Source of the DNA: Candidatus Brocadiia bacterium
GTDB lineage: Bacteria; Planctomycetota; Brocadiia; SM23-32
Assembly (NCBI GenBank): GCA_046538485.1
Contig: JBKHIT010000009.1
Span: 1-64,000, forward strand
Reading direction: 5' to 3'
Length of the DNA stretch: 64,000 bases
Position 1 is the first letter of the stretch. Each line of letters starts with the position of its first letter. The notes beneath the pieces are model-generated. The model did no database searches. It worked only from the letters and a program-made list of their open reading frames with translations, and was not told the origin of the DNA. Shown here piece by piece: positions 12,678 to 54,178 of this stretch. The position numbers and the translations under genes were made by a program.

Positions 12678-12686
12678 AGTGTCGGT

Positions 12687-13718
12687 ATGTTCAAGAATTT
12701 GCGTCAGCTTATTTTTGGGAACGCGGTGATAAAACTCATCGCGCTGGCTATCGCTGCCGCACTATGGTTCTATGCCAATAACCGTTTGAAAGAAGAGGCG
12801 AACCTTCGTGTCCCCGTGGTTGTGGATGTTCCTGAGGGGTATGAGCTCGTCTACCAGAGCCACAACAGAGTTCAGGTTCGGTTTTCGGGTCCTCAGTATC
12901 TTGTTCAGAGACGTCAGGAGGAGGCAAATCAGAATTTCCTCCAGATGACGGGGCGATTTGGTGGGGAGGAAATCAAAGGCGGTTTGAGAAAACTACCGAT
13001 TCAGGGCAAATGGCTGAACATCCCGGCGACCGAGCTGGTGCAGATGGGTATACAAAATGTAAAACCGGAAGCTCTTACGGTTTACATTAGTCCTGTGGAA
13101 TCGCGAACTCTCCCCGTCGAAATTTTGACTTCTGGACGACCACGCGAAGGGTATGAAATTCGTGGGAAAAACAGTATCCCCGAGGAAGTTGTTGTGCAGG
13201 GGCCTCGTGTGAGTTTGAACGAGATGAGTGCGATTATGACCCACCCGATATCGGTCTGGGACGCCCGGAGTGACCTGCGGCGTGTGGTGCCTCTTGTCAA
13301 ACAAAGAAAGGTTGAACTTGCTGAAGGGCTTGAGGTCTCGACTTCAGTGAAAGCTGATCCTCCCCAGGTTGCGGCGTATGTTGAAGTGGCGGGACAAGAC
13401 GAGGAGCGGGTTCTGGAAGGCCTTCCGGTCCAGATTGTGAGGCCGCTGAGCTTTCCGTACGGAGTAAAAATACCGGAAGAAGAATCGCACGCGACAGTCG
13501 TTTTGCGCGGACTATCCCATCAACTCGACCGGGTTGAGCCCGAAGGCCTGATGGTTTACGTTGATCTTCGTACCCTGACTGAAGAGAAAATTGAACCCGG
13601 TGGCAGTGCTCTGTACAAAGAAAGAATACACGTGTTGCCGCCTGACGAAGGCGATGTGGAGGTTATCCGGACAGAACCCCAACAGGTCACAGTTGAACTG
13701 AGCAATAAGGTTGAGTAA
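12687..13718 (+). CDS. cdaR: YbbR/CdaR-like regulator of diadenylate cyclase
   Basis: KLIALAIAAALWFY anchor, repeated P..V.V.GP YbbR-like segments, position after cdaA. Confidence 0.85.
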   Translation: MFKNLRQLIFGNAVIKLIALAIAAALWFYANNRLKEEANLRVPVVVDVPEGYELVYQSHNRVQVRFSGPQYLVQRRQEEANQNFLQMTGRFGGEEIKGGLRKLPIQGKWLNIPATELVQMGIQNVKPEALTVYISPVESRTLPVEILTSGRPREGYEIRGKNSIPEEVVVQGPRVSLNEMSAIMTHPISVWDARSDLRRVVPLVKQRKVELAEGLEVSTSVKADPPQVAAYVEVAGQDEERVLEGLPVQIVRPLSFPYGVKIPEEESHATVVLRGLSHQLDRVEPEGLMVYVDLRTLTEEKIEPGGSALYKERIHVLPPDEGDVEVIRTEPQQVTVELSNKVE

Positions 13719-22718: not shown

Positions 22719-22893
22719 TTATTGACCTCCGTGATTTCTTGATACGTTGGAACTCACAGGACTGGGACTTTGGCCTGCTGTTGCATATAAAGGGCTGCTG
22801 CACCTCTTTTAGGCTAAAAGTAATTTTACCTTAATGAACCTGTACGGTCAAATTCTGAAATGCGCTGGGGACGAAAAAGAGAAGAGCCCGGTT

Positions 22894-22922
22894 TTGACTT
22901 TGTTCTTGGCTCCGGCTACCAT
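22894..22922 (+). promoter_or_regulatory. Putative sigma70 promoter of hisI
   Basis: TTGACT-17 bp-TACCAT. Confidence 0.55.
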
Positions 22923-22979
22923 AAGTGCGTTTGTGCATTCTGCCAGACAAGACTGTGGGTTTCAGGAAGAGATTTGTTC

Positions 22980-23363
22980 ATGGAGAATTTGCTGAAAGAA
23001 CTGAATTTCCAAAATGGTTTAATGCCATCGGTCATCGTCGATGCGGAAGACGGACAGGTTTTAACGCTTTGTTATTTAAGCGAGGAAGCACTTAGAAAAA
23101 CTCTGGAGACCGGGATAGTTCACCTTTTCAGGCGTTCCAAAGGACGTTTAATGATGAAAGGTGAGACGAGCGGGCATACTCAGCATCTGAAAGAGTTACG
23201 GGTTGACTGTGGGGGAAAATCTCTTGTCCTGGAAGTTAAACAGAAAGTTGCTGCCTGTCATATGGGATACAAAAGTTGTTACTACCGGCGGTATGATATA
23301 TCAGAAGATCGCCTCCTGATAGATGGCGAGAAAATTTTTGATCCCGAAGACGTTTACGGGTAA
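22980..23363 (+). CDS. hisI: Phosphoribosyl-AMP cyclohydrolase (divergent)
   Basis: KGETSGH, DC...ACHMGYKSCYYR Zn motif, FDPEDVYG end. Confidence 0.88.
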   Translation: MENLLKELNFQNGLMPSVIVDAEDGQVLTLCYLSEEALRKTLETGIVHLFRRSKGRLMMKGETSGHTQHLKELRVDCGGKSLVLEVKQKVAACHMGYKSCYYRRYDISEDRLLIDGEKIFDPEDVYG

Positions 23364-23576
23364 CATGAGTTCTGATGTCGTTTTCTATAGTCGGACGTTG
23401 AAAATACTGAAAATGGAGCAATTGTAGCGTAAACAACACCGCCCTTATATTGGACATATCGGTGTTTTGGTGTATAATATTGTAGAAGGGTACGATGTAG
23501 GCGAGCGATAAGTTTCTTTGAGCATGTGCCCGTAAGTCGGGAAAACCGTGCCAGTTCAAGGAAGAGGAGAGAACCG

Positions 23577-24719
23577 ATGGCCGATGACCAGATAACCGAA
23601 GAAGAACTTATAGACAGGTGGGGAATTTCGAGCACAGCGATTGAGAGGCTTATCGAAGAAGATCGCCTCCCCGTTCAGGAAGAAAGAGAAGGCCAGCGAT
23701 GTTTTTCGCTGGAAGATGTCGAAGCTTTCGAAGAATCCGAAGGGGGCGAAGATTTTCTGACGGCAGAGGAAGCTGTCGAAGAACTCGGTATACCGCAAGA
23801 GGATCTTGAAGAAGCTGTTCAAGAGGGGAGTGCAACGGAATATCGGTTCGGCGCAGAGGCGAGGTATACACGAGAACGTCTGGATGAGCTGGAGGGTGGC
23901 CGTGAAGAAGCCGAAATAGGAGCGGCGGCGACTGATCAAACTCAAGAAGTCAACGAAGACGACCTGTTTGATTTTGGAGAAGATATTGGTGTTGACCTTG
24001 GGATGGAGGAAGAGGAGGAAGCTGAAAGGGAAGAGGAAGAGGAGGAAGCTGAAGGGGAAGAGGAAGAGGAGAAAGCTGAAGGGGAAGAGGAAGATGTTTC
24101 TGAAGACGATATGATTACTGGTTCCGTTGACGTGAGCGGAATTGTCGCTGAGGAAGAAGAGGGGGAAGGAGAAGAAGCTGCGGAGGTTTCCGAATCTGAA
24201 ATGATCACCGAAGTCGTGGATGTCAGTGGTCTGGAAGCCGGTGAAGAAGATCTGCTCGGCGATATTATCGAGGATGTGGGGGCTGATATTGAAGAAGAGC
24301 CGGAGTCGACTGGCGGGATGGCTGGAGAGGAAACAGTGGAAATGGGCGAAGGTGTGGAGGCCACCGCCGACATAACTGAACTGGACGAGGAAACTGTGGA
24401 TGCCAGCTGGGAAGAAGGGGAGCGAACGGCCGATATCTCGCAGCTGGAAGAAGAAAGTTTCGAGGGCGAAGAACTTGAAGATATTCTTGCGGGTGAAGAA
24501 GAGCTGCACGGAGAACTCGAAGAGGATGAAGATTTTGAGGTTCCCTATGGAACGCCCGTTGCAGCTGAAGCCGAAGCTTCTGTGCCCGTCTGGATCGTCG
24601 TTGTCCTTGTCCTCGCTTTTGTCATCCAGGCTATTGGGGCGCTGTTTGTGGTGGAGAATTCGGTGGCGCCCGAATACAAGACGGGGATTACTGAATCGAT
24701 TAATCTGTTTAAAGAGTGA
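23577..24719 (+). CDS. Highly acidic protein with two MerR/excisionase-like HTH modules and a C-terminal TM helix
   Basis: ITEEELIDRWGIS and LTAEEAVEELGIP repeats; E/D-rich linker; WIVVVLVLAFVIQAIGALFVV TM. Confidence 0.75.
   Translation: MADDQITEEELIDRWGISSTAIERLIEEDRLPVQEEREGQRCFSLEDVEAFEESEGGEDFLTAEEAVEELGIPQEDLEEAVQEGSATEYRFGAEARYTRERLDELEGGREEAEIGAAATDQTQEVNEDDLFDFGEDIGVDLGMEEEEEAEREEEEEEAEGEEEEEKAEGEEEDVSEDDMITGSVDVSGIVAEEEEGEGEEAAEVSESEMITEVVDVSGLEAGEEDLLGDIIEDVGADIEEEPESTGGMAGEETVEMGEGVEATADITELDEETVDASWEEGERTADISQLEEESFEGEELEDILAGEEELHGELEEDEDFEVPYGTPVAAEAEASVPVWIVVVLVLAFVIQAIGALFVVENSVAPEYKTGITESINLFKE
24006..24086 (+). repeat. Three near-perfect 27-bp tandem repeats (in-frame, EEEEEAE[R/G]E)
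   Basis: GAGGAAGAGGAGGAAGCTGAAAGGGAA / ...GAAGGGGAA / GAGGAAGAGGAGAAAGCTGAAGGGGAA. Confidence 0.9.
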
Positions 24720-24845
24720 TAGGCCGGATCCACCCGTTTTGCCCTGCTGAAAGTCGCTTCTTTTTTAACAATCTCCTTGCATCTTGATTCCGGCAATTGT
24801 TACACTCAGAAGGGATGTGGTATTTGACTTTCCCCTGGAATAGGA

Positions 24846-25616
24846 GTGTTAAATAAAATGCGCAGGAGTTTGCTTGTCATAATGGCCACTGTCAGTGCTG
24901 TTTGGGTAATGGGCTGCGCGCAGACCAGAGAGTTGAGCAAGACGAACAAAAACCTCCAGGATAAGCTGAAAACTTACAGAAGCGAACGGGATGCATTGAG
25001 GAAACGTTGCGAGAACCTGGAAAAAGAAAATACGCAACTCAAAGAAAAACTTAAGAAGGCGCAGGAAAGTACGAGGGAAATGAGCGAGTTGCTCGGGCAG
25101 CTCGAACAAGCGCGAAAACAACGGAAAAAGAAACTCGACGAATTGCGGAAATTGGTGGCCGATATAAGCGGGATGCGCATCGAACCGCGACAAGAAGGTG
25201 ATTTTATTATTATCGAAAATAAAATCCTCTTTGCTGCGGGGAAAATTGCTCTTAACGAAGATGCTCAAACGACACTCAAATCGACGGTGGTTGCTTACAT
25301 AAACAAGACGCTTGCGGAGAAACCAAACCAAAAATTCCGTATTGACGGGCATACAGACGGACAACCTATCCGACATTCAGAGTGGAAAGACAATTATCAT
25401 CTCGCGGCTATGAGAGCTCATTCGGTTATGTCTTACCTCCACTCTCAGGGTGTGCCGAAGGAAAAGATGTATATTTCTGCCTTTGGCCCTAATCGGCCAC
25501 TGGTGAAGCCAAAAAAACCGGAATCGGATACGCCCAAAAACCGACGCGTCGAGATCCTTATGGTGCCACGTGCTGCGGAGGGTATCGACGAAGTTTTGGA
25601 GCAGTTCGGTCGATAG
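24846..25616 (+). CDS. OmpA/MotB C-terminal domain lipoprotein with coiled coil
   Basis: Lipobox VMGC; IDGHTDGQPI, NYHLAAMRA and KNRRVEI motifs. Confidence 0.9.
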   Translation: MLNKMRRSLLVIMATVSAVWVMGCAQTRELSKTNKNLQDKLKTYRSERDALRKRCENLEKENTQLKEKLKKAQESTREMSELLGQLEQARKQRKKKLDELRKLVADISGMRIEPRQEGDFIIIENKILFAAGKIALNEDAQTTLKSTVVAYINKTLAEKPNQKFRIDGHTDGQPIRHSEWKDNYHLAAMRAHSVMSYLHSQGVPKEKMYISAFGPNRPLVKPKKPESDTPKNRRVEILMVPRAAEGIDEVLEQFGR

Positions 25617-25654
25617 AAACACAGGCAAATACGCCAACTTATGTAGAGCTGTCT

Positions 25655-25709
25655 GAACGGGCCGCGGGTCGGAATTAAGTCCTTTCCCTCGTCGGCCCGT
25701 TCTTTTTTT
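25655..25709 (+). terminator. Putative intrinsic terminator
   Basis: GAACGGGCCG...CGGCCCGTTC stem followed by T7. Confidence 0.65.
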
Positions 25710-25762
25710 CTGTTACTCTTTCCTATTACGAGCGGGGCGCCGAGCCTGTGAGGTTTCGAGAA

Positions 25763-26278
25763 ATGATCTATAAGGTGAAAATGCCCAAAATAGATGCCAA
25801 CGTCGATGAGGGAACCATCGGAGAATGGCTTAAAGACGAAGGGGAAGAGGTGGTTGAAGGCGAACCTCTGGTAGAAATCATTACTGATAAGGCGAATTTC
25901 CAGCTGGAAGCCCAAGACAGCGGGTTCCTGAGAGTAAAATTGGCCCGAAGCAAGGACGTGATTCCTGTAGGCTATATTCTCGCATTGATGGCCGATAACA
26001 TGAGTGAGAATTTGCCGGATCCGATGGCGGAAAACGACAGCATTATGGAGCAGTACCGTCAGAATATGCTTTTCGGTGGAGCGGAAGACTCGGAACCGGA
26101 GGAAGCGGGATATAAACAGCGTAGCCGTCAGAAATCCAAGGATGTCAGTGCAACGCCCGCGGCACGCAGGCTCGCACAGACCTACGGCATCGATCTGACA
26201 GAAATCGATACTGGTGGACGCGTGATCAAAAAGGAAGATGTGCAGGAATTGGCGGAACAAGAGCGGGGAGAAACATGA
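25763..26278 (+). CDS. Stand-alone lipoyl domain plus E3-binding (PSBD) protein without acyltransferase domain
   Basis: VKMPKI...EGTIGEWLK...EIITDKA lipoyl motif; ATPAARRLA..GIDL...IKKEDV PSBD. Confidence 0.88.
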   Translation: MIYKVKMPKIDANVDEGTIGEWLKDEGEEVVEGEPLVEIITDKANFQLEAQDSGFLRVKLARSKDVIPVGYILALMADNMSENLPDPMAENDSIMEQYRQNMLFGGAEDSEPEEAGYKQRSRQKSKDVSATPAARRLAQTYGIDLTEIDTGGRVIKKEDVQELAEQERGET

Positions 26279-26282
26279 AACC

Positions 26283-27494
26283 ATGACCGGTAGGTGTAAA
26301 GTATGGGTTACAGGCCTCGGAGTCGTTTCGTGCCTTGGTATCGGGGCGGAGGCATTCTGGAATGCCCTGCTGTGTTGTGAAAATGGTATCGGACCGCTTG
26401 ACCGGTTCGATTTGGGAAATAGTGCCTATACCTTCGGGGGACAGGTGTCCGGCATGACGCCAGAGCCTTTCCTCGAAGCTGGTGGCTCGATGGGGGCGCA
26501 GTTCGCAGTCCGGGCGGCCAAAGAGGCACTCGATGATGTCCCGGAGACCGAACGCAAGGAAATGGCTCTAATCCTGGCGACAAATTTCGGTCCTGCGGAA
26601 ATCCTGGAACAACTGATTGATGAGGGCGACCTCGAAGGAGCACCTATTGAAAATCCATTGCCGCGAGGATTCTACGATTGGGATGTCGAATACGTGGCAA
26701 ATCGGATTGGTCTCGGAGGAGAACGGTTTGATATGTCGCTTTCATGCAGTTCCGGTAATGCGGCGTTTGGACACGCCCTTGAGTTGATCCGAGGGGGATG
26801 CGCGGAAATGGTGCTCGCCGGTGGGTATGATAGCATTCAGAAAACTTCATGGGCGGGACTGTCATGCCTTAGAGTCATGGCTGTTGATGATGACGAACCA
26901 CCACTCGTGCGGCCTTTCGATGCCAACAGATCCGGTACGCTTTTTAGCGAAGGAGCAGCGTTGCTATTGCTTGAAAGTGCCGACCATGCGAAAAAACGTG
27001 GCGCGCATGCTCTTGCAGAACTCGCTGGAGCCGGTGCCAATAATAATGCCTATCACATGACACATGCCGACGAGGAAGGCAAAGCTACGGGGGAAGTGAT
27101 TCGGATGGCAATAGAGGACTCACAAATCGATGATTCAGAAATTTCGCATTTTAATGCCCACGGTACCGGCACAAAATTGAACGATGTCATTGAATCCCGG
27201 GCAATTGGCCGTGTCTTTGGAGACCGTACCAAGAGTATTCCGGTGAATTCGCTCAAAGGCGGGCTTGGACACGGTATGGGAGCGGCAAGCGCTTTCGAAG
27301 CTGTCGCGTGCGTTAGAAGCCTGCAAGAAAATCTGATACCCCCGACAGCTAATCTGGAAACCCCCGATCCAGAATGTGACCTTGATCTGGTGCGTAACGA
27401 GCCGCGTGAGGCTGATCTGAAAGCGGTTGTAAACAATTCTGCCGGAATCGGTGGAGGCAATGCTGCAGTGTTGCTGAAGAAGGCTGGAGATTAA
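26283..27494 (+). CDS. Beta-ketoacyl-ACP synthase (FabF-like / type II PKS KS)
   Basis: VWVTGLGVVS, catalytic LSCSSG, NAHGTGT, LGHGMGAA and NSAGIGGGNA motifs. Confidence 0.93.
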   Translation: MTGRCKVWVTGLGVVSCLGIGAEAFWNALLCCENGIGPLDRFDLGNSAYTFGGQVSGMTPEPFLEAGGSMGAQFAVRAAKEALDDVPETERKEMALILATNFGPAEILEQLIDEGDLEGAPIENPLPRGFYDWDVEYVANRIGLGGERFDMSLSCSSGNAAFGHALELIRGGCAEMVLAGGYDSIQKTSWAGLSCLRVMAVDDDEPPLVRPFDANRSGTLFSEGAALLLLESADHAKKRGAHALAELAGAGANNNAYHMTHADEEGKATGEVIRMAIEDSQIDDSEISHFNAHGTGTKLNDVIESRAIGRVFGDRTKSIPVNSLKGGLGHGMGAASAFEAVACVRSLQENLIPPTANLETPDPECDLDLVRNEPREADLKAVVNNSAGIGGGNAAVLLKKAGD

Positions 27495-27597
27495 ATTTAA
27501 TTTGATAACCGTCGATCCTGACGGGTGACTCGAAAACAAGAGTTTTTCTCTGTTAGTGATTGAAAGACGGCTCATTCATAAAACGGCTTTATAGACA

Positions 27598-28782
27598 ATG
27601 AACGATCGACAAAATAAAACGGAATCTATTTATATAACAGGGTTGGGTTGTGTGAGCGCATTGGGGGTTGGTATTGAAGCCATTGCAGAACCTTTTTGGA
27701 GCAGTGATAACCTTTTGGAAGATAAGGAATCCGCGCGAAACAAAGGTCTTCCACAATGCTGTGTGCCTGAGTTCGACGTCAGCGATTTTATCCCAACGAA
27801 AAGGCCTTATCTCGATCCCAATAGTCGTTTCGCGCTGGTGGCAGGCGGGATGGCGCTCCATGCCTCGGGACCGGGAGAGGAAATTATCAATCCCGCCCGA
27901 AGTGGGGTGGCAACGGGAACGGTATTGGGAAATATCAATTCGCAGGAAAAATTTCAATACGGAATAATGGAAAAAGGTGTCCGGCTGGCTTCCCCGATGT
28001 TATTTCCGCATTGCTATCCGAATACGAGCAACAGCCTTCTGAGCATCGAATTTGGTCTTCGGGGCTATAACCAGAATATCTGCGGGAACCGTGTCAGCGG
28101 CGCGAAAGCCGTTCAACTCGGCGCTCAGGCAATTCACTCAGGGCATGCCGACCTGATGCTGGTGGGAGGTTCGGATGCTTTGAGCGAAACAGTTTTAAAC
28201 GCTTGGGAGCAAGGTGACAATAACCGGACAATCCCGCCGGGAGAAGGCGCGGCGTTTCTTGTTTTGGAAAACGAGTTCTCCCTGGAACGGCGTTCGAGCT
28301 CCCCGGCCTGTCGCCTCGCTTCCATTTTGAGTTGTGGAACGGGAGTCCTTCCTGAAGAATCGGGTATCGACGTTGAACGCAAAATCACCAGGACGGTTAA
28401 AGATACTATCGAGCAGGCTCTTGAACAGGCCAGTTTATGGGAGGGGGATCTCGGAGCGGTGTTTACGACCCTTTCCCTTGATGAAGATCGAGTTGTTTCG
28501 CGTGCTTTGAGCGACGCTCTTGCGTCATCCTCGCAGGTTCCGAAATTCCCGCCATCCCGCCGCATAGGGGATACGCTGGCAGCAGCTTTCGGCATGGGAT
28601 CCATACTGGCGGCCCTGATTGTTAACGAGGAAAAGTTGCCTTCTCCACCTCAGCTTGAAGATGTTCAAAATGGCGTAGAGCTCTGGGTTGAAGAAATGCC
28701 TTCCGGGATGCTCGGGAAAGCGGTAGCCGTTGTGGATTGCTCGGAGCATAATGTGGTGGTGGCGATTCTTTCCGCAAGTTGA
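27598..28782 (+). CDS. Non-catalytic ketosynthase homolog (chain-length-factor-like)
   Basis: IYITGLGCVS, SPMLFP...N and GEGAAFLVLE retained. Cys site reads GNRVSG, HGTGT is absent, second His site reads IGDT. Confidence 0.85.
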   Translation: MNDRQNKTESIYITGLGCVSALGVGIEAIAEPFWSSDNLLEDKESARNKGLPQCCVPEFDVSDFIPTKRPYLDPNSRFALVAGGMALHASGPGEEIINPARSGVATGTVLGNINSQEKFQYGIMEKGVRLASPMLFPHCYPNTSNSLLSIEFGLRGYNQNICGNRVSGAKAVQLGAQAIHSGHADLMLVGGSDALSETVLNAWEQGDNNRTIPPGEGAAFLVLENEFSLERRSSSPACRLASILSCGTGVLPEESGIDVERKITRTVKDTIEQALEQASLWEGDLGAVFTTLSLDEDRVVSRALSDALASSSQVPKFPPSRRIGDTLAAAFGMGSILAALIVNEEKLPSPPQLEDVQNGVELWVEEMPSGMLGKAVAVVDCSEHNVVVAILSAS

Positions 28783-29645
28783 GGGTGATGACTGTGGCTG
28801 TTGTGAGCGCCATTATACTGAGCCATAACAAATCAAAATACACCCGCGCAACCCTGGCAAGTTTGGTTTCAACCAGGGGAGTAAAGCTGGAAGTTATCCT
28901 GATTGATAATGGTTCGACCGATGGCACACGCGCGATGTTGGAAGAGATGAAAGATGAATTCGCCGAGCAGGGCCATGTTATGCGGTGCCACTTCAATGAA
29001 ACAAATGTTGGGTGTTGCACCGGTAGAAACCAGGGGCTGGAAATGGCGCGTGGGGAATACTGCGCCTTTCTGGACAACGATGTGATGGCCGTGGAAAATA
29101 ACTGGGCATCCGAGCTTATTTCAACACTCGAAGAGGAAGAGAATGCCGGGATTGTTGGGCCGAAGATGATTTACCCGTTTGGACCTCACCAGATCCAGTG
29201 CGCCGGCGTTGGGGTCTCCCCCAACGGCCGCATAAAATTCAGGGGCCGGGGGGATGACCGACATACACCACGATATAATGTCCGTCGGGAAGTTCAATGT
29301 CTTATCAGTGCCTGTTTTCTTTTTCCCAGAAGTTTGTATGAGGAGATCGGTGGACTCGACGAAGTCTTCAACCCAATCGAATTCGAAGATTTTGATTTCT
29401 GCTATCGAGCCAAAGAAGCGGGATATTGTTGTATTTATGAACCCGGCGTCGAGATGTACCATTGGGAAAGTATTACCAGCGAGGGGACGGCGAAACTGCC
29501 GAATACTTACCTTATCATCAAGCATGGCATAATTTTTAAAAAGCGCTGGCGTCACATGTTTAAAAAGGAAGATGGTCCGCCTGATTCCGAATGCAAGTGG
29601 GAAAAAATTACGATGGAAAGTCTGGATGGGAAACGCTCTCGGTGA
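28779..29645 (+). CDS. Glycosyltransferase family 2
   Basis: VILIDNGSTDGT, GRNQG, FLDND, GGLDE and EDFDFC motifs. Confidence 0.93.
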   Translation: MRVMTVAVVSAIILSHNKSKYTRATLASLVSTRGVKLEVILIDNGSTDGTRAMLEEMKDEFAEQGHVMRCHFNETNVGCCTGRNQGLEMARGEYCAFLDNDVMAVENNWASELISTLEEEENAGIVGPKMIYPFGPHQIQCAGVGVSPNGRIKFRGRGDDRHTPRYNVRREVQCLISACFLFPRSLYEEIGGLDEVFNPIEFEDFDFCYRAKEAGYCCIYEPGVEMYHWESITSEGTAKLPNTYLIIKHGIIFKKRWRHMFKKEDGPPDSECKWEKITMESLDGKRSR

Positions 29646-29789
29646 AAGGATGTTGCTGGAAACAGGGGAGAATTTGCAAAAGGGACTGACAGTTCGGTTA
29701 CCACGGAAGGTTGTCTGGCGCCGGGAAATCGGGTAATTTCGATTTGTGCAGAGTTGCATCGGTGATGACTACTTTCAAAAGGAATAATT

Positions 29790-30050
29790 ATGGACAAAGA
29801 ACTGGAAGACAAAATCAAGGAAATGATTGTGGAGAGATGTTTTCTGACCATTGGTCCCGAAGAAATCGACGATGGAGCGAATTTGATGGACGATGTGGGT
29901 CTCGATTCGGTTCAGATACTGGAAGTGGTAGTCGGACTGGAAGATGAATTTGGTGTTACGATTGATGATTCAGATTTTGACATCGAGAATTTTGAGACGG
30001 TGGCGGCGATTGCCAACTATGTCCGTGATAATGAAGAAACTGGACAGTGA
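29790..30050 (+). CDS. Acyl carrier protein
   Basis: GLDSVQILEVVVGLEDEFGV phosphopantetheine motif; acidic 86 aa. Confidence 0.95.
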   Translation: MDKELEDKIKEMIVERCFLTIGPEEIDDGANLMDDVGLDSVQILEVVVGLEDEFGVTIDDSDFDIENFETVAAIANYVRDNEETGQ

Positions 30051-30062
30051 TTTTGGAGAGCC

Positions 30063-31094
30063 GTGAATATTATGACACCTTATGAGATTGTCCGGCGGGC
30101 GATAGAATTCGATAAACCGAAACGAATTCCAATTCGGCTCGGAACGATCGGTTTTGACGATTGTTGCTGGGTCGGGTGGAAGCCACCCGAAAACTGGGAG
30201 GCTCGAGCGGAAAATGTGGATGAGTGGGGGTGTCGCTGGGAGCGTCCCACGACCGTGCAGAATATGGGACAGGTTAAGGGACATCCGTTGGAGGATTGGC
30301 GTGAGCTGGAGAACTATCTCGCCCCCGATCCGCATATCCCATCGCGGTTCCGGGATACAGAAGAGCAGCTTCAAGAGGCGGGTGAAAAATACGTTGTTAT
30401 TGGATGTGGATTTACGCTATTTGAACGAATGTATTACCTGCGCGGGTATCAGAATCTTTTGACGGATTTTTATACGCAACCGAAACGTGTGGACGAGCTT
30501 GCGGAAAAAGTGGTGCAATTCCCAATTGGTATCGCGGAGGAGGTCGGCAAGCGATTCCGAGGTCGCATTCACGGATTTGCAATGACCGACGACTGGGGTA
30601 CACAGCAGCAGTCGACAATCAGCATTCCCATGTGGCGGCGATTTTTCAAGGAACGTTATCGGCGGCTGTTTGATGCGATCCACGATGCGGGAATGCATGC
30701 GTGGATGCATTCATGCGGAAAGGTCAACGAGGTGATCGAAGAATGGGTCGATGTGGGGCTTGACGTTGTGAACCTCCAGCAGCCTACACTGCTCGGCATT
30801 AAGGAGATCGGTCAACGATACCGGGGGAGAATCTGCTTTGAAACGCTTTGTGATATCCAGAAAACACTTCCAGGGGGTTCCCCCGAGGAGATTCGAGCGG
30901 AAGCACGGGAATTGCTGAAAGAATGGGCCACTTCGGAAGGGGGGTTCATCCTCAGTGACTACGGGGATGGTGCCGCGATCGGAGCTGCTGACGAGCAAAA
31001 ACAGATTATGTGGCGCGCATTTACTGAACTGGCTGCGCCTGAACTGGAGGGATTGAAACCCTGGGAAGAAAGTGGGACGGTCCATCCCGCCTGA
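30063..31094 (+). CDS. Uroporphyrinogen decarboxylase / MtaA-CmuA methyltransferase superfamily protein
   Basis: DEWGC.W, TLFERM..LRG, DDWGTQ, MHSCG and GGFILS motifs. Confidence 0.88.
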   Translation: MNIMTPYEIVRRAIEFDKPKRIPIRLGTIGFDDCCWVGWKPPENWEARAENVDEWGCRWERPTTVQNMGQVKGHPLEDWRELENYLAPDPHIPSRFRDTEEQLQEAGEKYVVIGCGFTLFERMYYLRGYQNLLTDFYTQPKRVDELAEKVVQFPIGIAEEVGKRFRGRIHGFAMTDDWGTQQQSTISIPMWRRFFKERYRRLFDAIHDAGMHAWMHSCGKVNEVIEEWVDVGLDVVNLQQPTLLGIKEIGQRYRGRICFETLCDIQKTLPGGSPEEIRAEARELLKEWATSEGGFILSDYGDGAAIGAADEQKQIMWRAFTELAAPELEGLKPWEESGTVHPA

Positions 31095-31127
31095 CACGTA
31101 TCTCCTACGATTTATCGAGGAAATCAG

Positions 31128-31337
31128 ATGAGAACGAACGAAATGGCAGATGTCGTCAAATCAGACTGGTTTGGACGGGACGTCACTGTATTGCTTGAGA
31201 ATGGAAAATCAATGACAGGTGAATTATCGGAAACCAGTTCAAATTATATTGTTCTGACAACTCAATCTGGCGATGAAGTTCAGATTATGGTTCACGCTAT
31301 TGTTCTAATAAAATCCGCGGGGGCATCTTCGGCTTGA
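31128..31337 (+). CDS. Small Sm/LSm (Hfq-like) fold protein
   Basis: VTVLLENGKSMTGEL...YIVL (Sm1-like) and QIMVHAIVLI (Sm2-like); GAGG SD. Confidence 0.65.
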   Translation: MRTNEMADVVKSDWFGRDVTVLLENGKSMTGELSETSSNYIVLTTQSGDEVQIMVHAIVLIKSAGASSA

Positions 31338-31380
31338 GGGAGAATGCGGAGGGATCTTCCGGAAAGTTCCCGGGGCAAGC

Positions 31381-31406
31381 AAAAACCCCGCGAATGCGGG
31401 GCATTT
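31381..31406. terminator. Intrinsic terminator (T-tract on the minus strand, downstream of tRNA-Phe; possibly bidirectional)
   Basis: AAAAA-CCCCGC-GAAT-GCGGGG-CATTT. Confidence 0.8.
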
Positions 31407-31413
31407 GTAGGTA

Positions 31414-31488
31414 TGGTGGGTAGGGTCGGAATCGAACCGACGACACCGGCCTTTTCAGGGCCGTGCTCTACCCCTGAGCTACCTACCC
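31414..31488 (-). tRNA. tRNA-Phe (GAA)
   Basis: Cloverleaf GGGTAGG/CCTACCC acceptor, anticodon arm CGGCC-CTGAAAA-GGCCG, TTCGATT T-loop, encoded CCA. Confidence 0.98.
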
Positions 31489-31501
31489 ACCAGAGCCAGC
31501 A

Positions 31502-31530
31502 ATTCTACTTGCCAGGAATTAGTTCGTCAA
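31502..31530 (-). promoter_or_regulatory. Putative sigma70 promoter of tRNA-Phe
   Basis: TTGACG-17 bp-TAGAAT on the minus strand. Confidence 0.7.
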
Positions 31531-31554
31531 GCAGAAAGAAATAACCTCCGGGCC

Positions 31555-34212
31555 TCAGGACAACTTTTTTTCAAGCAGTTTTCTCACGGCATCGAAAGCT
31601 TCCGGTAGTTTATCTGGTTCGGAACCGCCGGCCTGGGCCAAATCAGGACGTCCCCCTCCGCCTCCACCCAATACACGGGCAGCCGTGCAGGCGATTTCTT
31701 CTGCGTCGAGCCCTTTTTGCACAAGATCGGGGCTGAGCCCTGCCACGAGTGCGACTTTCTCGTTTTGTCTTGATGCCAGCAGACAGGCGACATTTTCATT
31801 GTTCTTACGGAGCACATCGGCTGCGCTCCGTAGTTCAGAATGCCCGCCATCGAGTTCCGTGAAAATGGCTCGCACGCCCGCAATTTCCTCGGATTCTTCG
31901 ATCAGGCCCCCCCCGGATGCCATCTGGCGCACGGCCTTTTCCCTGGCGTTCTGGAGGTCTTTCTCGAGTTGACGGATTTGATCCTGTAGATCTCGGGTTC
32001 TTTTCAGGAGATTTTCCTCCTGCGTGTTTATTTCATCAGCCAACCGGGCGAGCAGACGTTCGCGGTCACGCAGCCGTTCCAGCGTGTTGGTGCCGGTTAC
32101 GGCTTCGATTCTCCGGACGCCGCCGGCGACGCTGCTCTCGCTTGTGATACGGAAAAGCCCGATTTCGCCCGTCCGATCGCAGTGGGTTCCCCCACAGAGC
32201 TCGCGGCTGTAATTGCCGATGCTGATCACGCGCACGATATCGCCGTATTTTTCTCCGAAAAGCGCCATCGCTCCGATTTCCTGGGCTTCGCTTCGGCCCA
32301 TATGTGCCGATACGACCGGATCATCAGTCAGAATTTTATCGTTTACGATGTCTTCAACTTCAAGAAGTTCCTGGGTGTTCAATTCTGTCGGGTTTGAAAA
32401 GTCGAACCGGAGATGATCGGCGGCCACCGCGGAGCCGCTTTGCGTTGCGTGTTCGCCCAGCACTTCACGCAGCGCGTAGTGGAGGAGGTGGGTTGCCGTG
32501 TGGTTGCGGGCGGTGGCCCTGCGTTGTTTTTTGTCGACGCGGCAGAGGACGCGATCATTTTTGGCGAGCATGCCACTTTCAACACGTCCCACATGAAGGA
32601 AGAACCCTTTTTCGCGTCGGACACTATCAAAAACAAATTCGTTTTGCTCTCCGTCGACCGTCCTGACAATTCCCCGGTCTCCCATTTGTCCGCCCGATTC
32701 TCCGTAAGCCGGTGTTCGGTCGAGAACAATTTGAGCGTCCTGTCCCCCTTCAATTTTTTCAACGAGTTCATCTTGGTGGACAATCCCGATGATTTTGCCT
32801 TCGCTTTCCAGCGTATTGTAACCGGTAAATTCTGTGCTTTCATGTTCTTCCTGGAGCTGGCTGACCGGTCCGCCGGCGAAGACGCCTTTCTGGAAGGTAG
32901 AGCCGTTTTTCGAGCGCCTTTGGTGTGCTTCGAGGTGCTGGAGGAACCCCTGTACATCGGCGGAAATCCCATTATCTTTAAGGATTGACTCTGTCATTTC
33001 GACGGGGAATCCGTAGGTTTGGTAGAGGTCGAAAATTTCTTTCCCGCGGAGCACAGAGGATTTTTGACGTTTTAATCGGGCGATATGATCGGCGAGCACG
33101 GCCGAGCCTCGTTTTACAGTTTTTTGAAAGGATTTTTCCTCTTCTCGCACCACAGTTGCGATATGATCCCGGCTTTCCGCCAGCTCGGGATACGCGTCGG
33201 AATGGGCCTGGATAACGGGATCAAGCAGCTCCACCAGGAAAGGCCCTTCGACTCCGAGCTGCACGCCGTCTCTGATGGCCCGCCTCAGGAGGCGCCGCAC
33301 CACATAGCCCCGTTCTTCATTACTGGGAATTACTCCGTCGCCGATGCAGAAAAAGATAGATCGCGCGTGATCTGCGATGCGCCGCATGAGCGATGCATTA
33401 TCGGAATCGGTTTCATAACTGAGACCGCAAATTTCTTCGATTTGTTCCATGATCGGTTCGAAAATATCAATGTCGTAATTTGTCGGGACACCCTGCATGA
33501 TCCGCGCCATGCGTTCCAGGCCCATTCCCGTATCAATATTGCGCATAGGAAGGGGCTCAAGACTACCGTCGTCCTGCCGGTCGTATTGTTGGAAGACAAG
33601 ATTCCAGAGTTCGACATAACGATCGCAGTCACAGGAGGGATCGCAATCTGCGCGGTTGCAGCCGGTGTCTTCGCCGAGATCATAGAAAATCTCGCTGCAT
33701 GGCCCGCAAGGTCCGCTGGGACCTTGACTTCGCACATTAGCAGGCCAGAAATTTTCGCCTTCTCCGAATCTGTATATTTTTGCAGCGGCTATCCCCACCG
33801 TATTACGCCAGACATCATAGGCTTCTTCATCTTCTTCGTAGATGCTGACCACCATTTTCTCGGCGGGAATTGATATCTCATCTCGCATAAACTGCCATGC
33901 CCAGCGGATGGCGTCTTCCTTGAAATAGTCTCCAAAAGAGAAATTGCCCAGCATCTCGAAGAACGTATGATGGGAAGCCGTCTTCCCGACGTTTTCAATA
34001 TCACCCGTCCGCAGACATTTCTGGCAGGTTGCTGCTCGTTTCAGGGTTTCGTCGCCACGCCCGTAAAACTCGTCTTTGAACTGGTTCATCCCCGCGCCCG
34101 TAAACAGTAGCGATGGATCGTGCGTCGGCACGAGTGTATCCGGAGGGACAACACGATGATCGAACTCGCGAAAAAAATCCAGGAATCGCCTTCTAATGTT
34201 GTCTGTTTTCAT
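31555..34212 (-). CDS. alaS: Alanine--tRNA ligase
   Basis: LLFTGAGMNQFK, HHTFFEMLGNFSFGDYFK, HTATHLL, ELCGGTH and GGGGGRPDLAQAGG motifs. Confidence 0.99.
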   Translation of the reverse strand: MKTDNIRRRFLDFFREFDHRVVPPDTLVPTHDPSLLFTGAGMNQFKDEFYGRGDETLKRAATCQKCLRTGDIENVGKTASHHTFFEMLGNFSFGDYFKEDAIRWAWQFMRDEISIPAEKMVVSIYEEDEEAYDVWRNTVGIAAAKIYRFGEGENFWPANVRSQGPSGPCGPCSEIFYDLGEDTGCNRADCDPSCDCDRYVELWNLVFQQYDRQDDGSLEPLPMRNIDTGMGLERMARIMQGVPTNYDIDIFEPIMEQIEEICGLSYETDSDNASLMRRIADHARSIFFCIGDGVIPSNEERGYVVRRLLRRAIRDGVQLGVEGPFLVELLDPVIQAHSDAYPELAESRDHIATVVREEEKSFQKTVKRGSAVLADHIARLKRQKSSVLRGKEIFDLYQTYGFPVEMTESILKDNGISADVQGFLQHLEAHQRRSKNGSTFQKGVFAGGPVSQLQEEHESTEFTGYNTLESEGKIIGIVHQDELVEKIEGGQDAQIVLDRTPAYGESGGQMGDRGIVRTVDGEQNEFVFDSVRREKGFFLHVGRVESGMLAKNDRVLCRVDKKQRRATARNHTATHLLHYALREVLGEHATQSGSAVAADHLRFDFSNPTELNTQELLEVEDIVNDKILTDDPVVSAHMGRSEAQEIGAMALFGEKYGDIVRVISIGNYSRELCGGTHCDRTGEIGLFRITSESSVAGGVRRIEAVTGTNTLERLRDRERLLARLADEINTQEENLLKRTRDLQDQIRQLEKDLQNAREKAVRQMASGGGLIEESEEIAGVRAIFTELDGGHSELRSAADVLRKNNENVACLLASRQNEKVALVAGLSPDLVQKGLDAEEIACTAARVLGGGGGGRPDLAQAGGSEPDKLPEAFDAVRKLLEKKLS

Positions 34213-37508: not shown

Positions 37509-38546
37509 ATGAATTCGCAACGGAAAATGCGTGTTGTTCAGGTTGGTGTCGGCGGCTTTGGCGGAGCTCGCCGGAAGAGAATGAGGGAAACAGGGCTTTT
37601 CGATCTTGTCGGGGCTTACGACTGGAACTCCAAAGTACTTGCCAGAGCGTGTGAGGAGGAGAGTGCGGAGGCAACGGGAAGTTACGAAGAACTGATTGAT
37701 TTGCCCGACATTGAAGCGGTGGTCATTTCGACGGGGGCAAAATACCACGCTCAGCAGGTCCTCGATGCAGCTGAGAAAGGGCTACATGTTTTTGTCGAAA
37801 AACCGCTTTGTTCAACGCCCGCAGAATTGAACAGGCTCATCGAGCTGGATTCGGAAAGTGATGTGATAATCGGCGTCGGACATAACAATCACAAACACGA
37901 CGCAGTCGCATTGACGATTCAGCGGAAAATCGACGCGGGAGAACTCGGGGACGTCGTGACTTTCGAAAAAACGACCGCCCATAGCGGAGGATTGGTTATG
38001 GAGCCCGATGAGTGGCGCGCCGATCCCGAAAAAAACCCCGGCGGCATGTTGTTTCAGTGCGGGGTGCACAGTATTCATGAGCTGGCGTTTTATTTCGGGC
38101 CAATTGCGGAGGTCTATTCCACGATGCAACACGATATTCATTCGAGTGAGACCGCCGATATCGCCCTCTGCCACCTGAAGTTTACTTCTGGCCTCGTCGG
38201 TACTCTCAATGCTTATCATGTCACACCGTACCGGCATACACTCTCAATTTTCGGTACCAGAGTCAATATCTATCGCGATGTCCGATATCATGGGGAGGGG
38301 ACGGCACTCCTGACCCAGGAAACTCACCTCAATGGCAAAGAAGAACCACGCCTCCCTCTGGAGCCTATAGGTGAAAATGACGTTGGCGGGAATCTTCGCA
38401 GCTTTTATAACGCAGTGCGGAGTGGGGACGAGCTATATCCATCGCTGATTGACGGCGCGCGCGCTGTTGCGGTTGTTTTTGCTGCCGAGAAATCTGCCCG
38501 CGAAAAACGGTGGGTTGAAGTCGATGAACGATTGAGCAAGGTATGA
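37509..38546 (+). CDS. Gfo/Idh/MocA family oxidoreductase
   Basis: VGVGGFG, HVFVEKP and GGMLFQCGVH motifs. Confidence 0.93.
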   Translation: MNSQRKMRVVQVGVGGFGGARRKRMRETGLFDLVGAYDWNSKVLARACEEESAEATGSYEELIDLPDIEAVVISTGAKYHAQQVLDAAEKGLHVFVEKPLCSTPAELNRLIELDSESDVIIGVGHNNHKHDAVALTIQRKIDAGELGDVVTFEKTTAHSGGLVMEPDEWRADPEKNPGGMLFQCGVHSIHELAFYFGPIAEVYSTMQHDIHSSETADIALCHLKFTSGLVGTLNAYHVTPYRHTLSIFGTRVNIYRDVRYHGEGTALLTQETHLNGKEEPRLPLEPIGENDVGGNLRSFYNAVRSGDELYPSLIDGARAVAVVFAAEKSAREKRWVEVDERLSKV

Positions 38547-52433: not shown

Positions 52434-53768
52434 TTAGAGTTTTTCGGGGTTCTCAAGCAGATCTCGGAAAGTCGCGTAAAACTCTGCCGCTTGTGCACCA
52501 TCCACAACACGGTGATCTGCACTGATAGTAACTTTCATCAGGGGTTCTATGCGGATAGCGCCGTCTTCTGCGATGACTTCTTCAGCTATTTTCCCGACGC
52601 CGATGATGCAGCTCTCGGGAGGATTGATAATAGGGATAAAATAATCTACCCCGTATGTTCCCAAATTGCTGATAGTCAGGCTGCCCCCTTCGTACTGATC
52701 TGGTCGAAGCTTTCCTTCACGGGCCGTAGCTGCAAGCGACTTGAGGTCGGAAGATATTTCCTTCAAATTGCGCCGGTCGGCATTGTGAATGACCGGCACA
52801 AAAAGACCATCCTCGACGGCGACTGCAACTCCGACGTTGGCCTTTGAGTTGAGAAGAATAGAATCACCATCGAAACGAGCATTAACGCGGGGATGGTCTT
52901 TCATTGCCAGTCCCGCTGCTTTCACCAGCAAATCCGTAAACGTTATATGCACGTCAGCGGACATATTGAGTTCCTGGCGATACTCCGCAGCCGCCCGCAT
53001 GTTGATCTGTCCGACGAGATAAAAATGCGGCACGGACTGTTTGGACTCTGCCATGCGCTGAGCAATGGTCTGGCGCATTGCCGGCAATTCCACCCGGTTG
53101 CTACCGGAAACCGTCCCCGTGGCCGCACCCTCCTCTGCAGCGCGCTGAACATCTTCACGGGTAATTCGCGTCGCCCCTTCGGCCGGTTCAAGCCCTCGGA
53201 GATCGACCCCCTGTCGAATAGCCACTTCCCTGGCTGTTGGGGTGTAATTTATCTGGGATAGCTCATCGAGGTACGTTTCAATGTCTCTTTCAATAATCCG
53301 ACCTTGAGGGCCCGATCCGCTCAGAGTGTTAACCGGTATTTGGTTTTCTTCCGCCAGTTTTCTGGCGCGGGGCGATATAAAAACGCGTGCGGCAGCGTCT
53401 GAACCCGGAGATATCCCAGAGGAAACCGTCTCTTGCTGAGCCGTTGCTTGATCTTCGGTACTTTCTGCCACCTCGACAGATTCTTTCGTCTCTTCACGTA
53501 GAGCACTCAGGTCCTCCGGAAGTTCATCGTCTTCCTCACCGATGATTGCCACCAGCTCATTTACGGGGACGGTTTTGCCTTCTTCAACGAGTATTTTTTT
53601 AAGCAAGCCGTCGGCAAAAGATTCGACCTCAAGAGTTGCTTTATCCGTGGTAAGTTCGAAAAGAACTTCCCCTTTTTTAACTTTATCACCTTCTTTTTTG
53701 TGCCATTTCTCTATCGTTCCTTCTTCCATTGTCTGGCCGAGTTGTGGCAGCAGGACTTCTTGAAGCAT
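52434..53768 (-). CDS. Dihydrolipoamide acyltransferase (E2) with one lipoyl and two PSBD domains
   Basis: TTDKATLE lipoyl site, ISPRARKLA and YTPTAREVA PSBDs, TISNLG, ADHRVVDG. Confidence 0.95.
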   Translation of the reverse strand: MLQEVLLPQLGQTMEEGTIEKWHKKEGDKVKKGEVLFELTTDKATLEVESFADGLLKKILVEEGKTVPVNELVAIIGEEDDELPEDLSALREETKESVEVAESTEDQATAQQETVSSGISPGSDAAARVFISPRARKLAEENQIPVNTLSGSGPQGRIIERDIETYLDELSQINYTPTAREVAIRQGVDLRGLEPAEGATRITREDVQRAAEEGAATGTVSGSNRVELPAMRQTIAQRMAESKQSVPHFYLVGQINMRAAAEYRQELNMSADVHITFTDLLVKAAGLAMKDHPRVNARFDGDSILLNSKANVGVAVAVEDGLFVPVIHNADRRNLKEISSDLKSLAATAREGKLRPDQYEGGSLTISNLGTYGVDYFIPIINPPESCIIGVGKIAEEVIAEDGAIRIEPLMKVTISADHRVVDGAQAAEFYATFRDLLENPEKL

Positions 53769-54178
53769 TTCCTTATCTCCAGATGTTATGGGCAGGTTAA
53801 GGACTTGGGGAAAGAACAATTTTAATTTCCAGGCTTGAATCGTGCAAGCACCAAGCGGCTGGCCCGGATCTTTCAAGCGTCCTCAGTGCTGCAGATGCGC
53901 GGAAGCCAGAGGCGGGTGTATTCTCATGCCCCAGCTGCAGCCTGACAAAGCAGAGAGGCAGAACGGTGTTCCATAAAGATTCTACCCTGATTGGGCAACA
54001 ATAGCTCCCAATTATCCGTAAAATCCGGGCTAAAAAAACGGCGCATAAATCTGATAACTTAAAATCAGTGATCAGCAACGAGGCGAACGCTACGTTGAGA
54101 AACGATTGGCTTTAACTGCTTTTTCACAAGGAAGATACAGACATCTTGCTGCACAGTAACACTGGCCGGACACTGTGA

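Follow-up and report, generated by a model that had tools for sequence, protein, structure and literature searches.

A cluster of seven genes in a 64,000-nucleotide (nt) stretch of DNA from Candidatus Brocadiia bacterium points to a so far undescribed route by which a fatty-acid-like chain could be initiated straight from a 2-oxoacid. The stretch, hereafter the window, corresponds to positions 1–64,000 of the forward strand of contig JBKHIT010000009.1 (assembly GCA_046538485.1). The cluster occupies positions 25763–31337, with every gene on the + strand, in the order Lip (a stand-alone protein with a lipoyl and an E3-binding domain), ketosynthase (KS), chain length factor-like KS homologue (CLF), GT2 glycosyltransferase, acyl carrier protein (ACP), UroD/MtaA-like protein and Sm-like protein. 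This layout had been described in an earlier note on the same DNA, and it held in full when the open reading frame (ORF) listing was combined with Pfam and NCBIfam scans and with AlphaFold2 (AF2) modeling.

We propose that a front end resembling pyruvate dehydrogenase (PDH) primes the KS pair, with an acyl group passing from an E1 component to the core-less Lip and then to KS/CLF and ACP, and that the product is used by GT2. We give this proposal a little short of an even chance of being correct. The evidence that bears directly on it covers gene content, catalytic residues, conservation, synteny and natural gene fusions. The cassette is conserved in the PVC (Planctomycetes–Verrucomicrobia–Chlamydiae) group, that is, in Brocadiia-type Planctomycetota and in Kiritimatiellia; among the named Lip relatives, single ones come from Lentisphaeria.

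Conservation of the Lip–KS–CLF linkage

Related loci were retrieved with the CLF alignment alone, one genome being scanned per species. This yielded 12 loci (L001–L012) from metagenome-assembled genomes (MAGs) of Brocadiaceae/Brocadiia, Kiritimatiellia, Planctomycetota or unclassified bacteria, in which the presence of genes was determined by tblastn and by hmmsearch with a Lip profile. Lip lies directly upstream of KS–CLF in seven of the 12 (L001–L007), four of them Brocadiia-type and three Kiritimatiellia-type. Because the Lip–KS–CLF order recurs to this extent among loci that were retrieved through CLF, the arrangement is more than chance. The earlier note had asked whether the linkage of lipoyl protein, KS and CLF extends to other genomes; it is conserved across two phyla.

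In L002 and L004, the gene order is HisI, helix-turn-helix (HTH) protein, OmpA-like protein, Lip, KS, CLF, GT2, ACP and Sm, and L003 has the same order up to GT2, at the end of its contig. A BrxC/BrxD-like ATPase gene pair (PF10923, 6475–8916) is found in L001 between GT2 and an inverted ACP–Sm pair, which looks like a defence-type insertion into the cluster. Indirect support for the linkage of CLF, Lip and GT2 comes from the three search tables of their relatives, in which identical ‘longest contig’ values recur (e.g., 78961, 7772, and 347001). The cluster family is narrow, being confined to a small set of MAGs.

Lip, a lipoyl/E3-binding protein with no acyltransferase core

Lip combines a lipoyl domain (PF00364, E 1.4e-10) with an E3-binding domain (PF02817, E 6.5e-08), and its TDKA motif places a lipoylatable Lys in a DKA context. 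The C-terminal catalytic core domain of E2 (PF00198) is missing, as the polypeptide stops at residue 171, after the binding domain; a catalytic acyltransferase domain was found neither in Lip nor in its family. Against all of the E2 equivalog models of NCBIfam, Lip scores 50–79 bits, compared with cut-offs of 307–722, and its best NCBIfam match is the N-terminus of the acetoin dehydrogenase E2 (78.9 bits).

A family search recovered 32 relatives of 160–221 amino acids (aa), few of which are named; the named ones come from MAGs of Planctomycetes and Lentisphaeria. In the resulting alignment, T41, D42, and K43 (the lipoyl Lys) are invariant in 33 of 33 rows, as are A130, T131, P132, A134, and A138 of the binding-domain stretch ATPAARRLA. 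More generally, a search of 1.84 billion cluster representatives with the Lip profile returned 582 matches at E 1e-30 or better. Among the best 150 of these (50%-identity representatives), 67 are at most 250 aa long, 13 have 251–350 aa, and 70 are longer, the longer ones being mostly ordinary multi-lipoyl E2s.

It had been considered beforehand that Lip might be a truncated E2 pseudogene, in which case it would be a decaying fragment and its arrangement accidental. Of the three E2 domains, Lip does have just the first two. However, its length is conserved, its Lys is invariant and its E3-binding motif is conserved in all 33 rows, 67 of the best 150 representatives have a stand-alone size, and synteny is kept across two phyla. 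In addition, Lip is just 27% identical, over 169 residues, to the N-terminus of the full-length E2 that is encoded elsewhere in the window and on which the earlier note was silent. The synteny, family and length data effectively refute the decay explanation, which we regard as extremely improbable. Since the lipoyl Lys is invariant and a length of 160–221 aa is kept, Lip is, judging from its sequence, a genuine family of core-less lipoyl/E3-binding proteins and not a broken E2.

An intact ketosynthase and a presumed partner lacking the catalytic triad

The likely start of KS is 4 nt past the Lip stop codon (26283), and its longest ORF begins at 26238. In alignments to PDB 9s5h_B and to the Synechocystis FabF (1e5m), the catalytic triad Cys155–His293–His330 of KS is intact, and all 12 related KS sequences retain Cys-His-His. 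In the full-length alignment of CLF to 9s5h_B, the Cys is replaced by Arg, the first His by Thr, and the second His by Asp. The earlier description of an intact KS close behind Lip, followed by a homologue devoid of all three residues, is therefore accurate. The active-site position of CLF is variable in an 18-row alignment; in 10 CLFs it is occupied by R, S, S, H, F, V, A, R, A, and W, with neither Cys nor Gln in any of them. A word-based search found 17 close relatives of CLF, which are 37–50% identical to the window protein over the alignment.

CLF is presumed, on the basis of its sequence, to be the heterodimer partner of KS. KS and CLF are fused in a single ORF in L008 (10001–12040, 679 aa) and in L009 (4522–6768, 748 aa), and these fusions support the hypothesis that the two proteins act as one unit.

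Whether KS, CLF, and ACP belong to a characterised family was another point raised in the earlier note, and no such family was found: all three score below the curated NCBIfam cut-offs. KS reaches 317.5 bits with the FabF model TIGR03150, and the L005 KS reaches 373.6, for a cut-off of 493.75. FabF is nearest to KS among both curated families and PDB chains, with 232–234 bits for FabF chains, 208 for Iga11/AntD and 198 for the actinorhodin (act) KS. A literature search on PDB entry 9s5h, the best KS match, returned nothing relevant. Known CLFs are no nearer to CLF than FabF is, and CLF gives full-length but weak matches to NF005084 (52.1 bits) and NF006618 (43.9 bits), which we take to be models of KS genes from aryl-polyene-type clusters.

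The AF2 model of CLF, built from the 18-row alignment, has a mean predicted local distance difference test score (pLDDT) of 58.1, with most of the N-terminal half below 50. Its Foldseek matches to FabF, act CLF, and AntE (template modeling score, TM, of about 0.5; root-mean-square deviation of about 12 Å) indicate a KS fold only and give no clade placement. A complex prediction for KS, CLF, and the lipoyl domain of Lip (residues 1–85), made without controls, returned ipSAE values of 0.00 and 0.00, where the mark was 0.32, and counts neither way.

One further feature of KS concerns the motif that reads NSFGFGG in FabF chains, whose second Phe we take to be the FabF gating residue. This motif reads NSAGIGG in the window KS (27438–27467, residues ~386–395), in L001–L006 and in the fused KS of L008. 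Among the 12 sequences compared, the residue aligned to the second Phe is Ile in eight, Phe in three, and Cys in one. An altered gate of this kind might fit an unusual acyl donor.

E1, reductase and natural fusions

The Kiritimatiellia-type loci add genes that the window cluster does not have. L005 has the order Lip, short-chain dehydrogenase/reductase (SDR), KS, CLF, E1alpha, E1beta, and GT2, with gaps of only -28 to +10 nt. L006 has Lip, an ORF of SDR size in the SDR position (this ORF was not domain-scanned), KS, CLF, and E1alpha before its contig ends, and L007 has Lip, SDR, KS, and CLF before its own end. Similarly, L008 has SDR, the fused KS–CLF, E1alpha, and E1beta, followed by polysaccharide genes; these encode a Wzx-like flippase, an FrhB-like protein, a pyruvyl transferase and a UDP-GlcNAc 2-epimerase. 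The L005 E1beta passes the cut-off of the PDH E1beta subfamily NF006667 (395.4 against 321). E1alpha of the same locus falls just under that of the PDH equivalog TIGR03182 (366.8 against 393.85), and its SDR just under that of the FabG model TIGR01830 (289.2 against 297.75).

Two natural fusions were found among the Lip-profile matches. P0292 (443 aa) joins Lip to an SDR/ketoreductase; identity to the window Lip is 37% in its Lip part, and identity to the L005 SDR is 34% in its SDR part. P0253 (319 aa) joins a lipoyl and an E3-binding domain to an AcpS-type phosphopantetheinyl transferase (PPTase). The in-cluster E1alpha/beta and FabG-like reductase, together with these Lip fusions, strengthen the idea, put forward in the earlier note, that Lip shuttles a starter derived from a 2-oxoacid; the transfer of this starter to KS or ACP is a step that we infer.

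A protein of 1910–1987 aa is encoded upstream of Lip in L005 (1816–7548) and L007 (1505–7468), and in L005 its end reaches 4 nt into the region of the Lip start codon. No Pfam family was detected in it, and a search of the ESM Atlas gave leads to Ig-like or 3-keto-disaccharide-hydrolase-like surface proteins only (score 0.95 to one cluster). It was treated as an unrelated surface protein.

GT2 and ACP

GT2 contains a PF00535 domain (E 1.4e-24) and a DND motif. Its longest ORF overlaps CLF by 4 nt, as the earlier note had reported; the database copy of 283 aa implies a start at 28794, and with this start the overlap disappears. Orthologues of GT2 are present in L001–L005 with 51–71% identity, which places GT2, along with ACP (66–72%), among the best-conserved proteins of the set. 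ACP carries the GLDSV serine and has orthologues in L001, L002, and L004. It scores 46.6 against TIGR00517 (cut-off 70.45), and its best family is the cispentacin protein AmcB (64.3, cut-off 80). On these scores ACP is a dedicated carrier, and not the housekeeping AcpP.

These data bear on the possibility that the cluster provides a FabH-independent initiation of ordinary fatty acid synthesis, in which acetyl from E1 and Lip would allow KS/CLF to make acetoacetyl-ACP, with GT2 and the Hfq-like Sm gene being unrelated. The cluster is indeed surrounded by housekeeping genes (HisI, AlaRS, and tRNA-Phe), FabF is the nearest relative of KS among curated families and PDB chains, and the in-cluster reductase is nearly a FabG equivalog. 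However, both phyla retain GT2, one of the best-conserved proteins, at the cluster end, ACP remains under the AcpP cut-off, and the family is restricted to a narrow set of MAGs. We consider this role quite unlikely.

Proposed mechanism

In the scheme that we favor, a PDH-type E1alpha/beta would decarboxylate a 2-oxoacid, most likely pyruvate to judge by family resemblance. This E1 is encoded in the cluster in Kiritimatiellia; in the window genome it would presumably be encoded elsewhere and, like E3, be shared with the housekeeping E2. E1 would reductively acylate the lipoyl-Lys43 of Lip, probably with an acetyl group, and the E3-binding domain would tether Lip to E1 and later to E3. The acyl group would then leave Lip by thioester exchange, with either Cys155 of KS (in its heterodimer with CLF) or the dedicated holo-ACP as receiver, and in this way prime the chain; because Lip has no E2 acyltransferase core, it would not be handed to coenzyme A (CoA). 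KS/CLF would condense the primer with malonyl-ACP, and a FabG-like reductase would reduce the 3-keto group to give 3-hydroxyacyl-ACP; the Kiritimatiellia clusters encode this reductase themselves, whereas the window organism would have to draw on its fatty acid synthesis for it. The resulting 3-hydroxyacyl product, of short or medium length, or else a lipid derived from it, would be built into a glycoconjugate by GT2, and the E3 recruited by the binding domain would re-oxidise Lip. Lipoylation, the E1 substrate, the lipoyl-to-KS/ACP transfer, the chain length, the GT2 acceptor and the product are all parts of the scheme that we infer.

A dehydratase and an enoyl reductase were found in none of the scanned versions of the cluster; the product would therefore be short, or be finished by housekeeping fatty acid enzymes. 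The polyene that the earlier note had suggested as a product gains no support: no dehydratase occurs among the scanned ORFs of the window or of the loci. The conserved product in these poorly studied PVC bacteria would probably be a glycosylated hydroxyacyl lipid.

Among the 57 window ORFs scanned with Pfam, there was no ketoreductase, dehydratase, FabD or FabH, as had been reported before, and no E1, E3, or lipoate-attachment domain either. The full-length E2 of the window scores 390.6 against TIGR01349 (cut-off 445) and has no adjoining E1 or E3 gene, its neighbors being FtsW/RodA-like and HisG genes; dispersed genes for such a complex are therefore normal in this genome. The window genome thus has a lipoyl-dependent complex with E1 and E3 encoded elsewhere, which could also serve Lip. 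This E2 has two E3-binding-like stretches, and the binding domain of Lip aligns with it at residues ~165–200 and ~209–249.

A more specific version of the scheme can be formulated, in which the acyl-dihydrolipoyl arm of this core-less E2 remnant docks on KS/CLF and acylates the KS Cys directly, with the triad-less CLF as the evolved docking partner. We regard this version as possible, if somewhat unlikely. If it were true, a 2-oxoacid would be turned into a chain starter with no need for CoA, an E2 core or FabH, and thiolase-fold condensing enzymes would have the lipoyl arm as a third type of swinging-arm donor in addition to ACP and CoA; a PVC-specific glycolipid pathway would also be defined. 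More generally, if the proposed mechanism holds, enzymes that form C–C bonds can be served by a lipoyl arm that has been separated from the E2 core and now works as an acyl shuttle. Chain-initiation logic would then extend beyond FabH, CLF decarboxylation, adenylating loaders, and E2-containing modules of the Qnc type, and a direct route from 2-oxoacid to starter unit would be useful for engineering.

Several observations weigh against the E1–Lip–KS/CLF scheme. L008–L012 are more distant KS–CLF pairs with no Lip in the available sequence (L011 being cut inside KS), so Lip is not obligatory for this KS–CLF lineage; L008 has E1alpha/beta, SDR, and KS–CLF, yet no Lip within 21.8 kb. No E1, E3, reductase or lipoate-attachment gene lies near the cluster in the window or in L001–L004, and for these the link to E1 therefore rests on the Kiritimatiellia versions, in which E1alpha/beta could be housekeeping PDH genes located there by chance. 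An ACP of this type was not found in L005–L012, among which L005–L007 end at or before GT2 and are uninformative on this point. With at least 119 relatives at ≥51% identity, GT2 seems to belong to a larger family than CLF, for which the word-based search gave 17, and GT2 may serve other contexts; its PDB matches are generic GT-A enzymes only. Finally, Cys162 of CLF (28081–28083), three residues before the catalytic position, is present in at least 90% of 18 Brocadiia-type CLFs, whereas L005 and L006, with CLFs of the Kiritimatiellia type, have Ser there. With such a near-invariant Cys, the Brocadiia-type CLF may not be chemically inert.

The reverse relationship had also been envisaged in the earlier note, namely that KS–CLF supplies a chain that is placed on the lipoyl Lys. 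Here KS–CLF–ACP would make an octanoyl-like chain for Lip, as a private cofactor route. A chain-length-limiting CLF and a dedicated ACP beside a lipoyl-accepting protein speak for such a route, and octanoyl-ACP from mitochondrial fatty acid synthesis is a known lipoate precursor. However, no LipB, LipA, or LplA gene occurs among the scanned ORFs of the window and the loci, and GT2 is left with no role. This route also fits poorly with the in-cluster E1alpha/beta, which implies that Lip is a substrate of E1 and not a product only. We hold it to be very unlikely.

Comparison with known systems

The closest functional analogue of the proposed route, and its precedent, is the loading of glycolicacyl units in quinocarcin and scleric acid biosynthesis. 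QncN/QncL/QncM and SclQ1-4 are described as combining a thiamine diphosphate (ThDP) enzyme, a lipoyl arm and an ACP to make glycolicacyl-ACP, and the lipoyl domain as being fused to an E2 acyltransferase domain that carries out the transfer to ACP (PMC6335953). The likeness is that an E1-like ThDP enzyme, a lipoyl arm and a discrete ACP deliver an acyl group of primary metabolism with no free CoA thioester. The substrate of these systems is a ketose phosphate and the receiver a nonribosomal peptide synthetase, whereas here the E1 would be PDH-type and the receiver a KS/CLF pair; in addition, the Lip family lacks a catalytic domain and has an E3-binding domain. ThDP E1-like subunits are encoded in the cluster in L005, L006 (E1alpha only before the contig end), and L008, and not in the window or in L001–L004. 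A counterpart loading system exists in naphthyridinomycin biosynthesis.

Minimal type II polyketide synthases (PKS) resemble the cluster in having an active KS, a triad-less partner and a dedicated ACP, and the structures of the actinorhodin (1tqy), AntDE:AntF (6smo/6smp), and Iga11/12 (6kxd) proteins are among the sequence and fold matches of KS/CLF. In type II PKS, CLF has a conserved active-site Gln and acts as a malonyl-ACP decarboxylase that is used for priming. However, no Gln is found at this position in any of the 10 CLFs here, the Pfam scans of the window and loci ORFs detected no cyclase, aromatase, dehydratase or other tailoring genes, and the KS scores favor FabF chains over act KS and Iga11/AntD.

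Aryl polyene clusters typically contain dehydratases, an adenylating/thioesterase loader, an acyltransferase, LolA/MMPL export genes, and a GT2-like gene. KS, CLF-like KS, ketoreductase (here in Kiritimatiellia only), ACP, and a GT2-like gene are shared features, whereas dehydratases and genes for an adenylating enzyme, an acyltransferase, and LolA-like and MMPL proteins were not found in the scanned ORFs here. To our knowledge, aryl polyene clusters do not carry a lipoyl protein or E1.

This comparison is relevant to the possibility that the genes form a specialised aryl-polyene-type or highly reducing type II fatty-acid/PKS-like cluster that is primed conventionally, by acyl-CoA, acyl-ACP or decarboxylation of malonyl-ACP. 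Lip and E1alpha/beta would then merely boost the local supply of acetyl or NADH, or be parts of another dehydrogenase altogether, one for a 2-oxoacid or for acetoin. The top NCBIfam match of Lip is the N-terminus of the acetoin dehydrogenase E2, CLF gives its weak full-length matches to NF005084 and NF006618, and L008–L012 carry related KS–CLF pairs without Lip. Moreover, ‘aryl polyene’ antiSMASH calls with two KS and a ketoreductase make up 14.2% of the biosynthetic gene cluster calls in 898 Kiritimatiellia genomes (10.64898/2026.10.06.756941). Conventional priming has more difficulty with the tight packing of Lip and E1alpha/beta around KS–CLF and with the Lip–SDR and Lip–PPTase fusions, and an acyl group on the lipoyl arm of a dehydrogenase that lacks an acyltransferase core would have no outlet. 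KS, CLF, and ACP also stay far under the curated cut-offs, and the scanned ORFs of the window and of L001–L008 include no dehydratase, adenylating enzyme, thioesterase, LolA-like or MMPL gene. We judge a conventionally primed cluster of this kind to be unlikely. For genome mining, a caution follows: clusters with two KS and a ketoreductase in these phyla are likely to be labelled automatically as ‘aryl polyene’ even where, as here, the gene set does not fit.

Compared with the E2 of 2-oxoacid dehydrogenases and with the E3-binding protein (protein X) of eukaryotic PDH, Lip has the same arrangement of an E2-type lipoyl domain (MP...EG...TDKA) followed by a peripheral-subunit-binding domain, but it lacks any core or catalytic domain and thus cannot form a 24- or 60-mer assembly or acyl-CoA. 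Another relative is the alphaproteobacterial PDH E1beta with an N-terminal lipoyl domain (NF008854), with which Lip aligns at profile positions 1–124 (47.4 bits) and in which an extra lipoyl domain is likewise tied to E1 and not to an E2 core. Lip differs from it in being a separate polypeptide with its own binding domain, located beside KS–CLF and not fused to E1beta.

In Amc chemistry, a KS heterodimer and a small ACP act on a starter related to a 2-oxoacid. The cispentacin proteins AmcF-AmcG and AmcB (NF058662, NF058660) resemble the cluster proteins in that AmcB is the best family of ACP (64.3 bits) and that KS matches AmcF (219.2 bits). However, both scores are below their cut-offs (80 and 325, respectively), and the adenylating loader and other Amc genes are absent. 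A paper on candidate ladderane loci (PMC2649909) does not mention lipoyl, lipoamide or pyruvate dehydrogenase, and full-text literature searches retrieved no described lipoyl protein that works with a KS/CLF pair.

Borders and genomic context

The positions of the cluster genes and of the features that delimit them are given in Table 1.

Table 1. Cluster genes, border elements and the full-length E2 gene in the 64,000-nt window
Feature	Position	Strand	Description
Intrinsic terminator	25655..25709	+	Closes upstream OmpA-like gene; 5' border of cluster
Lip	25763..26278	+	171 aa; lipoyl PF00364 + E3-binding PF02817
KS	26283..27494	+	FabF-like; PF00109 + PF02801
CLF-like KS homologue	27598..28782	+	Pfam detects N-terminal KS domain only
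GT2 glycosyltransferase	28779 (or 28794)..29645	+	PF00535
ACP	29790..30050	+	PF00550
UroD/MtaA-superfamily protein	30063..31094	+	PF01208
Hfq-like Sm-fold protein	31128..31337	+	No Pfam family; AF2 model + Foldseek
tRNA-Phe (GAA)	31414..31488	-	ARAGORN; Rfam RF00005 71 bits; 3' border of cluster
Full-length E2 of 2-oxoacid dehydrogenase	52434..53876	-	PF00198, PF00364, PF02817

The terminator that the earlier note had placed upstream of Lip is well supported: its hairpin has a folding energy of -29 kcal/mol (z -4.93), was matched by none of 200 shuffles and is followed by seven U. It was missing from the output of a simple pattern/consensus scan. At the other end, an ORF of 66 aa (31344–31544, +) was rejected as an artefact, as it overlies the tRNA-Phe gene of the opposite strand, and the cluster therefore ends at the Sm gene. 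A terminator-like hairpin is located 3' of the tRNA at 31402–31385 (-). The tRNA was the sole match in an Rfam scan of 24500–32000, and a promoter scan found no more sites than in shuffled sequences.

The UroD/MtaA-like protein matches PF01208 with 51.4 bits and MtaA/CmuA with 32.1 bits, far below the cut-off of the latter, and a PDB sequence search with it gave no match. The earlier note had counted its gene as part of the cluster; tblastn found it in none of the 12 loci, and it was dropped as a core member. The gene appears to be a window-specific insertion between the ACP and Sm genes and is probably outside the core. The protein has an HSCG motif, which we take to resemble the zinc site of MtaA-type thiol methyltransferases, and a distant family member with the same motif is encoded two genes past KS–CLF in L012 (8735–9868); the two proteins share 29% identity over just 41 residues.

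The AF2 model of the Sm-like protein (mean pLDDT 78.6) comprises a helix (H5-9) and five strands, and its top Foldseek matches in the PDB are Hfq chains (E 2.6e-4 to 7.4e-4, TM 0.64–0.82; 3hfo at E 2.6e-4). The Hfq-like fold thus agrees with the earlier assignment. Its score against TIGR02383 is 15.7 for a cut-off of 61.7, so that the fold is Hfq-like and membership of the Hfq equivalog is unsupported by the sequence score. The Sm gene adjoins ACP in L001, L002, and L004, even where the ACP–Sm pair is inverted, and this pairing could reflect a transcriptional link or mere local synteny.

Upstream of Lip, 22860–25616 (+) encodes HisI, a 397-aa excisionase-type HTH protein and a coiled-coil OmpA/MotB-like protein. 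The HisI/HTH/OmpA-like order is kept in L002–L004, and in the window the terminator separates these three genes from the cluster. Farther away, at 11859–13718 (+), a YbbR-domain gene comes directly after one for a diadenylate cyclase (DAC domain), DAC and YbbR being the usual synthase/regulator pair for c-di-AMP. The window also contains a Fic/DOC gene (5060–5443), a sulfatase gene (15661–16947), and a heparinase II/III-like gene (38543–40579).

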